Positions 929 to 4,746 of a stretch of DNA of 4,746 nt are shown one piece after another. Numbering within the stretch: position 1 is the first letter of the stretch; every line of letters begins with the position of its first letter. The notes beneath the pieces were generated by a model, which made no database searches, had not been told where the DNA came from, and worked only from the letters and a program-made list of their open reading frames with translations. A program made the translations under genes and the position numbers. The DNA comes from a virus (Duplodnaviria > Heunggongvirae > Uroviricota > Caudoviricetes), in the IMG/VR virus record IMGVR_UViG_2690316028_000005. One strand, given 5' to 3'.

Positions 929-1273
929 ATGGCACGACCTCAGACGGTTAATCAGTTACCCGACCCGATCAAGAAAGAACTTAATAAAAAGCTGACCGAA
1001 AGTTCATTCAGCGGTTACGTTCAGCTTACTGAGTGGTTAAACTCGTTGGGATACCCGGTTTCAAAATCATCATTGCATCGCTATGCTGAACGCCGCCGCC
1101 TGTCGCTTATTGCAGGGAGCGATGCTCCTGGTGCAACAGCTAATATTGTGGATATTAAACTTCGCTGTCTGGAGATTGCCTCGCTCTGTTTAAAAACCGA
1201 CGAAAAGCTGCCAACAGATGAAGTAACAAAACACGCTGAAAATTTGATGGGGTGGCTTTACGACCAGAAATAA
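929..1273 (+). CDS. Hypothetical small protein (114 aa), possibly a helix-turn-helix DNA-binding or terminase small-subunit-like protein
   Basis: ORF-track ORF with ATG start and AAGG 11 nt upstream. The N-terminal pattern (QLPDPIKKEL...SLHRYAERRR) recalls small phage DNA-binding proteins; family assignment is from memory and unverified. Confidence 0.65.
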   Translation: MARPQTVNQLPDPIKKELNKKLTESSFSGYVQLTEWLNSLGYPVSKSSLHRYAERRRLSLIAGSDAPGATANIVDIKLRCLEIASLCLKTDEKLPTDEVTKHAENLMGWLYDQK

Positions 1274-1402: not shown

Positions 1403-1537
1403 ATGTCTAATCACGTTGGTGGTGTTCGCCATCACCTCGGCTTATTCACTACCGAAGCGGCGGCGCGTGCTGCGTACCTGAAAGCTAAAGCCAGATACCA
1501 TCCGTCAACGCCAGCCGATTTATTGCAGGCTGCCTAA
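1403..1537 (+). CDS. Possible 44-aa ORF with a degenerate AP2-like motif (GGVRHHLGLFTTEAAARAAY); may be a gene remnant or non-coding
   Basis: ATG-initiated sub-ORF of the track ORF 1274-1537, whose TTG-started N-terminus is low-complexity and Pro-rich. Weak ribosome-binding site. Confidence 0.2.
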   Translation: MSNHVGGVRHHLGLFTTEAAARAAYLKAKARYHPSTPADLLQAA

Positions 1538-1555
1538 TCCTCGGAGGTTCCATTA

Positions 1556-1981
1556 ATGGCTGATGAAAAGCCGATTAGAGCGCTGGCAGATGATGACCCG
1601 CGCCGCCAGCGGTACGCTGAACTGTTGGCGCAGGCTGGCCGCATGACTATTCCACGGCTGCATCCGGGCGATGCTAACAGTGTTATGAGTCAGCTTGCGA
1701 CAATGCTCGGAGCACCTGTCCCGATAGTAGGTGCTATGACTGAGCACGCCGCTGCATGGCGTGCCTGTCTTCTGGAGCAAGGGCTTGGTGATCTTCTGGA
1801 TGGCTTGAGTAAGCAGGTGCTGACCATCTTCTTTCTGCTCTGCTGGAGAGACAGCGCCTTGCGATTGGCGGGTAAGCAAAAGGAACGGTTTGCAGCGGCC
1901 AGCGAGGGTTTGACCATTGAGCAATACCGGGCAATGCACCCGGCTTACAGAGAGGATAAAGAAAATGATAACCACGATTAA
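1556..1981 (+). CDS. Hypothetical protein (141 aa)
   Basis: GGAGG 1543-1547 is 8 nt before the ATG; GC-rich; overlaps the next ORF by 17 nt. Confidence 0.75.
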   Translation: MADEKPIRALADDDPRRQRYAELLAQAGRMTIPRLHPGDANSVMSQLATMLGAPVPIVGAMTEHAAAWRACLLEQGLGDLLDGLSKQVLTIFFLLCWRDSALRLAGKQKERFAAASEGLTIEQYRAMHPAYREDKENDNHD

Positions 1982-2264
1982 ATTAAGGTGGCGGTACATC
2001 GAGCCGCCACCAATGACTGGCGCACTCGCTGACCTGAAACAGTGGGTAATGGATACCGGAGAGCCTGAGCTTGAAGCTAAATTTCGTAAGCTGCTGGGGC
2101 TGATGCGCCGCAATGGTATCAGTGACGAACGTGTTAATGCGATGGCCGCCGAGCTTTATGCTCTGGTATGCCAACGCCAGCGCGAAGAATACGAAGCCTG
2201 CAAACGGGCTGCATCTGACAGTGGAGGCTTTGAATCATGGTTACACGGACAGACCAACTACTAA
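1965..2264 (+). CDS. Hypothetical protein (about 99 aa; start trimmed from the track TTG at 1917 to the ATG at 1965)
   Basis: AGAGG 1951-1955 is 9 nt before the ATG at 1965; overlaps the upstream ORF stop at 1979-1981. Confidence 0.6.
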   Translation: MITTIKLRWRYIEPPPMTGALADLKQWVMDTGEPELEAKFRKLLGLMRRNGISDERVNAMAAELYALVCQRQREEYEACKRAASDSGGFESWLHGQTNY

Positions 2265-2674
2265 GAAAAGCGATGCGAGGCTATCTGGAATATCTCGGCA
2301 ACATGCCGCTAGCGGAACGCATTAAAAATTCTGCTGCGTTCGATGATGTGTATCACTTCCTGTTGAATGGTTCAGGACGGCTGGAGTTGCGCCGCGCTGA
2401 TGTGGCCGCTGTCCGTGTCTTCCTGTGGAATTATCAATACCGACGCTGCGCGGTGACAGCTAAGCCGCTACGCCTCGCGTCTGCTGTATTGGATCACTGT
2501 CACCGAACTGGACGTGTGCGCGCTGTGGTTCATCGTTCGGCCAATGCAGCGGAAGGTGGTTATTATGTGGGAAATTTGTGCGGACTCTCACGAGGTAGCA
2601 TGTTAAGCATGCTACCTGCCTACCGCCGACAATACAAGGGGTTGGGCGTTATTTATCCAAGACAACATGCGTGA
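2237..2674 (+). CDS. Hypothetical Arg-rich protein (145 aa)
   Basis: GGAGG 2223-2227 is 9 nt before the ATG; overlaps the upstream ORF by 28 nt. Confidence 0.65.
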   Translation: MVTRTDQLLRKAMRGYLEYLGNMPLAERIKNSAAFDDVYHFLLNGSGRLELRRADVAAVRVFLWNYQYRRCAVTAKPLRLASAVLDHCHRTGRVRAVVHRSANAAEGGYYVGNLCGLSRGSMLSMLPAYRRQYKGLGVIYPRQHA

Positions 2675-2712
2675 TGAGATTATTTCTTTTATTTTCATTC
2701 GGTTATGTGTTG

Positions 2713-2790
2713 TTGTGGCTGCCTTGTTACTTGCCTATATTTAAAACAATTCTTGACGGATTGACGTAGATTGCGTAGGCTGAGCATAAA
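2713..2790 (+). promoter_or_regulatory. AT-rich upstream region of the cargo operon with tandem TTGACG/TTGCGT repeats and candidate promoter hexamers (TTGTGG 2713-2718 with TATATT 2736-2741)
   Basis: Imperfect tandem repeats cTTGACGga 2752-2760, TTGACGta 2761-2768, TTGCGTag 2771-2778. Several -35-like hexamers but no single unambiguous -35/-10 pair. Confidence 0.3.
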
Positions 2791-2875
2791 ACAGTTTCCT
2801 AATATGTCTCCAAACTGAGCTTCAACTTGAGAATACTTCGTTCCTACATCTCCCTTGAAGGGGTAGGAGGATAAT

Positions 2876-3085
2876 ATGAACTTTGATATGCGTACAAACC
2901 AAAATTGTGCATCGTTTTTTAACCCAGCAACCAAGGCGTTTGTCGTCGTTGATTCGTTTGACAACTACGAATTCGATGTGCGTGCTGGTACTTTATCACG
3001 CACTGAATTTGTAGGCACCATCACAGCTTCAAACGATGAAGAGTTGAACAAGAAATTAGCTGAGATCACGGCTGCACACATATGA
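2876..3085 (+). CDS. Small acidic hypothetical protein (69 aa); first gene of the AT-rich cargo operon
   Basis: AGGAGG 2865-2870 is 5 nt before the ATG. About 37-40% GC by hand count against about 55-60% in the upstream genes. I count 10 Asp/Glu and 6 Lys/Arg; no hydrophobic segment. Confidence 0.7.
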   Translation: MNFDMRTNQNCASFFNPATKAFVVVDSFDNYEFDVRAGTLSRTEFVGTITASNDEELNKKLAEITAAHI

Positions 3086-3456
3086 TAACTCAACAGCAGA
3101 TTGATGATTTAGTTGCAGATATTAACGATATCTTGGAAGAAGATAGAGCCAAGCTAAAGATGTCATTTCATTTTGCTGTTGATAGACTTAATGATCCGCG
3201 TAATAAACCTCCAATCACGTTAGCTGAGTTGAGAGTGATTTTTACAAATTTCATTGGACAACACTTGCAGACAATTCTAGGCAAAGATGAGGGATTTTCC
3301 TTCACTATCAAGTGTCAGAAATCTGGTATTGCTATACCGTGCGCTATAGAGCATGAACTTGATATCGGTGCAAAGTGGGTAGTTCAGCAAGTGATCACCA
3401 TCATGCGGAATCCGCAGTTTAACGCGTATCATGGTGATGTCATCTTTGATGTTTAA
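3082..3456 (+). CDS. Hypothetical protein (124 aa); second gene of the cargo operon, translationally coupled
   Basis: Its ATG overlaps the upstream stop in ATGA at 3082-3085. Acidic by my count (17 Asp/Glu, 12 Lys/Arg). An H-x4-R-x4-R motif (HFAVDRLNDPR) is present but I cannot assign a family. Confidence 0.7.
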   Translation: MITQQQIDDLVADINDILEEDRAKLKMSFHFAVDRLNDPRNKPPITLAELRVIFTNFIGQHLQTILGKDEGFSFTIKCQKSGIAIPCAIEHELDIGAKWVVQQVITIMRNPQFNAYHGDVIFDV

Positions 3457-3483
3457 AAGAAAGGCGCTATAGCGCCTTTTTTA
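3455..3483. terminator. Bidirectional rho-independent terminator shared by the cargo operon and the convergent integrase
   Basis: A-rich run, perfect palindrome GGCGCTATAGCGCC at 3463-3476, then TTTTTT at 3477-3482. The integrase stop codon (complement of 3481-3483) lies in the T-tract. Confidence 0.7.
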
Positions 3484-4704
3484 TAAACACGGATAACTGA
3501 CCAACTCCACATACTCCCATAGTTCTTTCATCCCTGCTCCCTTGCTATATGTCCTGAAAGCTTCCGTTTTAGCTTTTTGTTCGGTATGCCCGGTTATTGC
3601 CCCTATGCGCTGTTCTGGTACTCCTGCTCTGTCTAAGCAAGTAATAAAGTGACCACGCAGGGAGTGGAAGCATTGGCGATCTGTAGCCGCTGACAGCACG
3701 CGACGGCGTAGCCGTGTAAATGCCTGCGAGTACCACGGGCCACGCTTACCGTCGGCACGTTTAATCTTGTTCGATTGGGGGAGCAGGTATTCACCGTTGT
3801 TCTGCGCAAGGTATTTATCAACGATGCTGATTAACAGCGAGTGTATGGGGACGTGCCTTACACCCGCTTTAGTTTTAGATTTGCTGACGTAGAAGCAGCG
3901 TACCCCTTCAACTTTGATAATCTCAACTCGTTTGATGCTGGCGATTTCGTCGAGACGCATACCGGAATACAAACCGATTATGATTACGTCTCGTATCTCG
4001 CTACCTGCCTCTTTTATTAATGCCTGTAGCTGGTGTAGTTCAAAAGGTTGATAACTTTCGTTCGTCTGGCGGGCTTCCAGATTGTGGCCGTGAAAGGGAT
4101 TATCAGGGGCGATATTGTCATATTTACGCCGGGCGAAGTCATACAGCGTCCCTAAGCAGGTTAACCAGTTTTGCAGCGTCTGGCGGGAAAACTTATCTTG
4201 GTTCGCTTCCAGAAAGTCAGAGACGAGCCGCCGCCCGATTCCATTTATTGTAATGGTTGGGCGTTTTATTGAATTAGTAAATGCCGATACAGCGCGAACT
4301 GATTTACTCAGCGTGGAATAAGAGCGCCGATCTTTGTATTGCTCTGCATATTCTTTACTGACATCTGTCAATTTTGGTGATGCTGGTTTTCCCCGCTCTG
4401 CTGGAATAGTTGCGGGTGTGGTAATGCTGCTGGATACCCCCGCCAGCAAGTGAAGATCTGTTACAGCGGAATGAATCCGGGTAATGGGGTTATCCGGTTT
4501 CATCATGAGCTGTAGCTTACGGAACTCTAATAAATATTGGTCACGGAAAATGCGAGCTTGCATGATGTCCCGTGTGCCTGTCGATTTCTTGAGCGAGCGC
4601 CGCCCGTTCCAGAGGTGGCGCATGTAGACCGGAATATAGATTTGAAAGATGAATATCCCATCTTTGTTTGCATAAAGATAAGAAGTCTTCGGTAATGACT
4701 CCAA
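3481..4704 (-). CDS. int: Tyrosine site-specific recombinase (phage-type integrase, 407 aa as tracked)
   Basis: C-terminal catalytic signature: Arg in YSGMRLDEI, HSLRGHF (H-x-x-R), then GH and Tyr in FRTYSKG. The N-terminus (LPKTSYLYANKDG...NGRRSLKKSTGTRD) resembles lambda/P22-type arm-binding domains as I recall them. The tracked start is TTG at 4704 with a weak ribosome-binding site; the next ATG is at 4623. Confidence 0.85.
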   Translation of the reverse strand: MESLPKTSYLYANKDGIFIFQIYIPVYMRHLWNGRRSLKKSTGTRDIMQARIFRDQYLLEFRKLQLMMKPDNPITRIHSAVTDLHLLAGVSSSITTPATIPAERGKPASPKLTDVSKEYAEQYKDRRSYSTLSKSVRAVSAFTNSIKRPTITINGIGRRLVSDFLEANQDKFSRQTLQNWLTCLGTLYDFARRKYDNIAPDNPFHGHNLEARQTNESYQPFELHQLQALIKEAGSEIRDVIIIGLYSGMRLDEIASIKRVEIIKVEGVRCFYVSKSKTKAGVRHVPIHSLLISIVDKYLAQNNGEYLLPQSNKIKRADGKRGPWYSQAFTRLRRRVLSAATDRQCFHSLRGHFITCLDRAGVPEQRIGAITGHTEQKAKTEAFRTYSKGAGMKELWEYVELVSYPCL

Positions 4705-4746
4705 CTTACTGATAGTGTTTTATGTTCAGATAATGCCCGATGACTT

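Follow-up and report, generated by a model that had tools for sequence, protein, structure and literature searches.

An AT-rich gene pair in the cargo slot of an Escherichia coli integrative island encodes the KreTA toxin-antitoxin system

Background

What does a pair of small, AT-rich genes do when it is found wedged between a block of GC-richer genes and a phage-type integrase? The window analyzed here (the whole stretch of 4,746 nucleotides, taken from IMG/VR record IMGVR_UViG_2690316028_000005 and assigned to the Caudoviricetes) contains such a pair. The original prediction, made from the letters of the sequence, considered it a candidate for a new toxin-antitoxin, abortive infection or anti-restriction module, recently acquired at an accessory position. 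We have followed up this proposal by comparing the two genes, their predicted products and the DNA around them with bacterial genomes, viral collections, profile databases and solved structures.

Organization of the gene pair

The features of the pair and its immediate surroundings are the following.

2778..2875, + strand: cassette-specific region upstream of kreA (homology to the island of strain LR-33 ends at window position 2777)
2876..3085, + strand: kreA, antitoxin gene, 69 aa, ATG start, pI 4.64 (ORF and DNA identity to WP_001008346.1)
3082..3456, + strand: kreT, toxin gene, 124 aa, ATG start, pI 5.22 (putative endoribonuclease of RegB/RelE fold)
3457..3482, both strands: hairpin at the junction where kreT and the convergent integrase gene end (RNAfold)

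Both reading frames were recovered as described, coupled by an ATGA overlap that occupies positions 3082-3085. The strong AGGAGG ribosome-binding site is found at 2865-2870, 5 nt ahead of the ATG of kreA, and direct reading gave no Shine-Dalgarno of its own for kreT, which together with the ATGA overlap is consistent with translational coupling. The stop codon of kreT (3454-3456) and that of the integrase (3481-3483) are separated by 24 nt. The hairpin at 3457-3482 has the arrangement A-tract/GC-stem/T-tract and folds on both strands (RNAfold energies of -14.8 kcal/mol for the + strand and -12.0 for the - strand), so that the shared terminator anticipated at this point is likely a bidirectional intrinsic one; a simple terminator scanner missed it. 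A scan for consensus promoters gave no sigma-70 consensus on the + strand of the 200-nt spacer upstream of kreA, and hence the independent transcription of the pair is something that we infer, the promoter of kreA being presumed to lie within 2778..2875 or slightly upstream. No convincing operator-like palindrome was found upstream of kreA, and scanning the window for Rfam families and tRNAs gave no match.

The drop in GC content is real as far as the pair is concerned, with 37.8% in the spacer (2675-2875), 41.9% in kreA and 38.7% in kreT. The value of 55-60% attributed to the preceding block was slightly high, since the genes before the pair have 52-55% (200-nt windows of that block reach 56-59.5%); the integrase gene has 47.9%. 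Both products are small and acidic, and the lack of membrane segments held as well, the maximum Kyte-Doolittle mean over 19 residues being 0.71 in KreA and 0.93 in KreT, with no hydrophobic segment in either. That these ORFs are more than chance is indicated by their matches to PHROG families (KreA to phrog_14630 at 3.6e-39 and KreT at 4.1e-65, both families of unknown function) and by the recurrence of the adjacent pair in dozens of phage contigs.

The pair is identical to the published KreTA system

Positions 2700-3500 of the window are 100% identical to the E. coli genome NZ_LR536431.1, and the identity is 99.97% over 1411-4746. No other genome among the 5,426 complete E. coli genomes contains this DNA. 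The two genes are annotated there as coding for hypothetical proteins, WP_001008346.1 and WP_000632671.1, and exactly these two proteins were cloned as kreA (WP_001008346.1) and kreT (WP_000632671.1) for neutralisation assays in a recent study (Sci Adv 2025;11(40):eadz8560, PMC12487901, preprint 10.1101/2025.05.14.653371). KreT was toxic in E. coli BW25113, the toxicity was rescued by KreA given in trans, and 3H-methionine incorporation was selectively lost under KreT, indicating a block of translation (PMC12487901). The same authors predicted with confidence a KreA-KreT dimer in which KreA buries the putative RNase site, and presented RNA cleavage by KreT as an inference only (PMC12487901). 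They reported KreTA in Gammaproteobacteria, placed it in "prophage-like regions" and claimed no sequence-level relatives in their viral database (PMC12487901). No further mention of KreTA was found in our literature search.

The pair is therefore already known as the toxin-antitoxin system KreTA, which received its name and its experimental validation in 2025. The proposal of a toxin-antitoxin module is borne out by experiments on identical proteins, and the claim that the pair is new does not stand. As a discovery it adds little, the exact proteins having been published; its value is rather as a check, in that a toxin-antitoxin pair with an RNase-like toxin was called from raw sequence. What differs with respect to the published description is the context, the same sequence occupying here the cargo slot of an integrative island of small size, and the viral relatives, of which the paper reports none and this analysis found examples among the phage records of GenBank as well as 341 stretches of IMG/VR.

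With a probability of about 0.9, we consider kreA-kreT a type II toxin-antitoxin cassette, carried as AT-rich cargo, in which the RegB-like KreT stops translation and KreA neutralises it. KreA would be made first and from the same transcript, with KreT translationally coupled through the ATGA overlap, and according to the published dimer prediction KreA would bind KreT and cover its putative RNase site. Free KreT would arrest translation, most probably via mRNA cutting. The biological role may be phage defence by abortive infection or the stabilisation of the element.

KreT is similar to RegB by fold

The AlphaFold2 model of KreT is of moderate confidence (pLDDT 76.9, with residues 93-95 below 50) and contains, in this order, a helix, a strand, a short helix, a long helix and four strands. 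All that characterizes the RegB fold is present in this model, namely the additional helix at the N-terminus, the two helices after it and the sheet of four strands. Comparison by Foldseek with viral models gave a RegB-family "site-specific RNA endonuclease" (E 3.6e-5), and the closest solved structure is also RegB. KreT thus appears to have the fold of this endoribonuclease of phage T4, common to RelE and YoeB. RegB is a cyclizing RNase with H48 and H68 as catalytic residues and a RelE/YoeB-like fold plus one N-terminal helix (PMC3014915).

An alignment of 19 KreT sequences, spanning 28-80% identity, contains ten invariant residues (H30, R35, N37, D38, R40, N41, E49, T106, R109 and F113). The H-x4-R-x4-R motif that had been noticed in the larger protein, and loosely compared to small RNase-type toxin folds, is a real one; it corresponds to H30, R35 and R40 and is invariant throughout the family alignment. 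Furthermore, the invariant His/Arg/Asn-Asp pattern reappears in fusion proteins of unrelated phages. The active site would be formed by the invariant loop S-x-H30-x4-R35-x-N-D-x-R40-N together with the C-terminal strand T106-I-M-R109. Aligned to RegB by hhalign, in a weak alignment (probability 6.8%, P 0.005), S28, H30 and D34-R35 of KreT fall on S46, H48 and D51-R52. RegB H68 has no invariant counterpart in KreT; H68 itself varies among RegB homologues.

At the level of sequence families the similarity disappears. KreT had no match in Pfam up to an E value of 1, including the REGB_T4 and RelE/ParE models. The REGB_T4 model (PF10715) recognized T4 RegB at 8.1e-69 and did not score KreT, which is therefore RegB-like by fold and outside that sequence family. 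Neither KreA nor KreT was matched in the NCBIfam scan, in Pfam or in PADLOC-DB 2.0.0 (a database of 2023, older than KreTA), and profile searches against the PDB sequences with both proteins gave only noise.

Several properties set KreT apart from T4 RegB (PDB 2hx6; PF10715). The spacing of the motif is H-x3-R-x3-R in RegB and H-x4-R-x4-R in KreT, RegB is basic whereas KreT is acidic, and the second catalytic histidine of RegB, H68, has no invariant equivalent in KreT. T4 RegB cuts at GGAG and depends on ribosomal protein S1. Unlike T4 RegB, KreT has a dedicated protein inhibitor; to our knowledge no anti-RegB protein has been described. On the other hand, KreT is outside the sequence families of the mRNA interferases RelE, YoeB, HigB and YafQ, and has an additional N-terminal helix in comparison with them. 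Their antitoxins typically contain an RHH, Phd or HTH DNA-binding domain, whereas none was found in KreA, which resembles a compact immunity protein. The AlphaFold2 model of KreA (pLDDT 92.7) consists of four beta-strands and a C-terminal helix, with weak fold matches that include AcrIF24, T7 Gp1.2 and phiKZ Dip. As KreA showed no domain for DNA binding, the autoregulation usual in type II systems is not evident.

A variable cargo slot in a family of integrative islands

The location of kreTA within the island is defined by the following features.

2237..2674, + strand: Endonuclease VII-like gene, last backbone gene before the slot (Pfam Endonuclease_7 3e-06; phrog_423 2.9e-15)
2560..3519, no strand: variable cargo slot, from the 3' part of the Endonuclease VII-like gene to the 3' end of the integrase gene
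3481..4690, - strand: tyrosine integrase, convergent with kreTA (Pfam Phage_integrase 5.6e-10; DUF6538 at residues 9-56 of the ORF; phrog_1 1.6e-35)

The backbone to the left of the pair (HNH, two hypothetical genes and the Endonuclease VII-like gene) recurs in several dozen of the 67 matching E. coli genomes, with an identity of 86-92%. Homology to the sibling islands stops at window position 2559, 2562 or 2777 and restarts at 3520, already inside the integrase gene. The islands of this family are of about 14 kb (L001 8260-21900; also L090, L091, L092 and L140-L144), are inserted at tRNA-Gly or beside hsdR, and carry a resolvase, a DEAD-box helicase, a 331-aa "capsid protein", HNH, the Endonuclease VII-like endonuclease and the integrase. 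Such a gene content resembles that of a phage satellite. The slot contents in the nine islands inspected were as follows.

This window / NZ_LR536431.1: KreTA
E2348/69: AbiTii (direct scan: Pfam 4e-44, PADLOC 2e-48)
USDA-50748: AbiTii (from annotation)
LR-33: YafO-family toxin and an upstream overlapping 64-aa ORF
A16: YafO-family toxin
N9 and 22AR0118: hypothetical protein and DNA cytosine methyltransferase (Dcm-methyltransferase pair)
NCTC11023: DUF3606 protein and hypothetical protein
WP8-S17: 214-aa hypothetical protein

The comparison of gene content across related elements, which had been suggested as a check, thus shows this position to be a hotspot where the defence and toxin-antitoxin cargo varies. 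As different sibling islands hold different cargo in the exact slot, the description of the pair as recently acquired cargo at an accessory position is supported, and kreTA is a self-contained AT-rich cassette in the variable slot beside the integrase of an integrative island of about 14 kb. The slot has a GC content of ~40-44% in the four cases measured (this window, LR-33, NCTC11023 and E2348/69). The YafO toxin and AbiTii share with kreTA the position between the Endonuclease VII-like gene and the integrase, as well as the GC content of ~40%. YafO is moreover a translation-blocking toxin like KreT. However, YafO and AbiTii belong to protein families unrelated to KreTA, and AbiTii, unlike kreTA, consists of one gene, placed on the other strand. 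In the LR-33 island, the unannotated 64-aa ORF (L092 6391-6585) overlaps the start of the YafO-family toxin by 17 nt and is likely its unannotated antitoxin.

Both ends of the window contain traces of other mobile elements. The last 56 bases (4691-4746) are the terminal inverted repeat of an IS1, into which the integrase ORF (3481-4704) runs, so that the native start codon is missing and the TTG start listed for it falls within IS1. The integrase is followed in NZ_LR536431.1 by an IS1A transposase and a truncated transporter gene, and the island is probably immobilised. At the other end, positions 1-1413 are not contiguous with the rest in NZ_LR536431.1 and match, at 93-95.5% identity, the terminal part of a Mu-like element located directly next to ynbC in E. 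coli AW1.7. This element codes for a Mor activator and a tape measure protein and has, at window 929-1273, a Gp27-family gene. The Mu-like segment ends in ...CA at 1413, inserted in the HNH gene of the island, of which the C-terminal 44 codons remain (1403-1537). Within the Mu-like segment, a 34-nt inverted repeat (237-270 and 488-521, 97% complementary) surrounds a 217-nt segment holding a strong promoter-like site (TTGATT-16 nt-TATAAT, 369-396). This layout resembles that of an invertible promoter switch; the nine E. coli genomes carrying the segment all have it in the same orientation.

Distribution of the pair and of KreT-like domains in phages

An HMM search among 1.84 billion representative proteins retrieved 364 relatives of KreT at E values up to 1e-3. 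In IMG/VR, 341 stretches encode a KreT relative, of which 80 loci were kept. This search was carried out with an intermediate KreT alignment, since the close-family alignment found none and the broad 19-sequence alignment has no conserved stretch for a locus search in IMG/VR. Word-indexed homologue searches with the pair gave only 6 and 12 close relatives. Wherever KreT is a stand-alone protein (125-126 aa), kreA is found directly upstream, overlapping or within ~10 nt (35/35 IMG/VR loci). Reciprocally, 41 of the 44 kreA loci in IMG/VR have kreT immediately downstream, a count obtained with a wider alignment because the first patterns were too narrow. The pair was also found in two GenBank Uetakevirus records, unannotated in both. 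Altogether, at least four unrelated phage backbones carry it.

Uetakevirus-like prophages: an antirepressor-like gene on one side and variable small genes on the other, with tailspike and injection-protein genes flanking in the opposite orientation
Myovirus: between tail genes and a presumed tape measure gene (flanking genes read from sequence alone)
Siphovirus-like phage: in the tail region (flanking genes likewise)
Fourth backbone: beside baseplate-like genes (flanking genes likewise)

The pair behaves, then, as an autonomous moron cassette.

The remaining 45 of the 80 loci contain a more distant KreT-like domain without kreA, mostly within proteins of ~200 to 1,300 aa. Among cultured lytic phages, this domain is present in Sinorhizobium phiM12, phiM7, phiM19 and phiN3, Methylophilales phage Melnitz (QZI94764.1), a Paraglaciecola virus and Flavobacterium phage immuto. 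In the Sinorhizobium phages it forms the C-terminus of the 602-aa protein gp159 (phiM12: L138 1040-2848, YP_009143269.1), and in phiM12 and Melnitz the gene is located near a primase gene. A synteny of these genes with the T4-type regB was considered and dropped, the position of regB in T4 not being established. In metagenomic sequences the domain is fused to cytidylyltransferase-like, DUF5824, zeta-toxin/AAA_33 kinase, DUF3008, DUF5754 or HNH domains. There is no Pfam model for the KreT-like domain itself. The fusion proteins (P0049, P0075, P0085, P0117 and others) are lysine-rich and measure 200 to ~1,300 aa, like the polyvalent proteins of phages.

Alternative explanations

The presence of KreT-like domains without KreA in large lytic phages, and in 45 of the 80 IMG/VR loci kept, could also suggest that KreT is a developmental RNase of phages, an analogue of T4 RegB that reshapes the mRNA population during lytic growth, with KreA as a timing inhibitor and the toxicity seen from plasmids as a by-product. 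RegB is after all the closest solved structure, and a review on T4 had raised the possibility of an anti-RegB partner (PMC3014915). The genomic context makes this explanation unlikely, though. The pair is carried by temperate phages in moron positions among tail and tailspike genes, its position differs between backbones, and in the Uetakevirus-like prophages it runs in the opposite direction to the tailspike and injection-protein genes that flank it. Besides, the island slot is otherwise filled by Abi, toxin-antitoxin or restriction-modification-like cargo, and kreTA is intact here although the integrase has been clipped and the HNH gene disrupted.

The mode of action of the toxin could be a different one as well. 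KreT might block translation without cutting RNA, by stoichiometric binding or modification of the ribosome or of a translation factor, the fold being just a scaffold. Only by its fold can KreT be related to RegB and RelE, and the ParE members of the RelE/ParE superfamily are not known to act as RNases. In addition, the inhibition of methionine incorporation is the only activity measured (PMC12487901). Against such a mechanism, which we regard as quite improbable, speaks the conservation of a histidine, three arginines and an Asn-Asp pair over a range from 28% to 80% identity, which is typical of a catalytic site, and the weak hhalign alignment, in which the KreT histidine coincides with the catalytic H48 of RegB.

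Finally, the acidic character of both proteins (pI 4.64 and 5.22) and the weak fold matches of KreA to phage inhibitors (AcrIF24, T7 Gp1.2 and phiKZ Dip) are all that would speak for an anti-defence or DNA-mimic anti-restriction module, an idea of the original prediction that found no support and that we consider extremely improbable and reject, given that KreT has an RNase fold and that toxicity and rescue have been published.

Solitary kreA homologues of jumbo phages and the possible role of KreTA

Homologues of kreA standing alone were found only in four jumbo-phage sequences, Erwinia phage Kaldavass (366 kb; L004 4001-4213) and three contigs (L126 2965-3207, L129 2965-3207 and L134 2899-3201), whose lengths in ascending order are 355, 358 and 524 kb. 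Kaldavass had no match to either KreT query. In L126, an ORF of 139 aa immediately follows kreA; it was examined as a diverged KreT and rejected, having neither the motif nor a Pfam match. In Kaldavass and L126 the neighbours of kreA code for an RNA ligase, Sir2, a Nudix/cyclic-phosphate-processing receiver-domain protein, PIN-PhoH and a nucleotidyltransferase, which makes an anti-RNase, RNA-repair setting plausible. A lone kreA among genes of RNA-repair type suggests an antitoxin stolen to act against an RNase toxin. There is a known case of a phage-encoded antitoxin, Dmd of phage T4, which acts against RnlA and LsoA. By analogy, the lone kreA genes of jumbo phages are what would be expected of a phage-borne inhibitor of a host toxin. 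Dmd, however, is unrelated to the cognate antitoxin, whereas the lone jumbo-phage genes are true homologues of KreA.

Putting these observations together, we tentatively propose a broader scenario, possible but somewhat doubtful, in which KreTA would be an abortive-infection module against phages, the kreA genes of jumbo phages would be stolen counter-defence genes and KreT would represent a widespread RNase domain of the RegB class, present in large lytic phages either by itself or as part of multi-domain proteins. The RegB lineage is known so far only from T4-like phages (1138 phage records) and, if the scenario were true, the KreT-like domains would extend it far beyond them. With the pair itself already described, a modest residual interest lies in the defence hotspot, in the jumbo-phage copies of kreA and in the wider RegB-class domain. 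The genomic context sharpens the question of defence, because the slot of KreTA is common to AbiTii, a YafO toxin and a methyltransferase pair. It also sharpens the questions of whether jumbo phages neutralise KreT by captured copies of KreA and whether T4 RegB has its long-missing relatives among the KreT-like domains of lytic phages.
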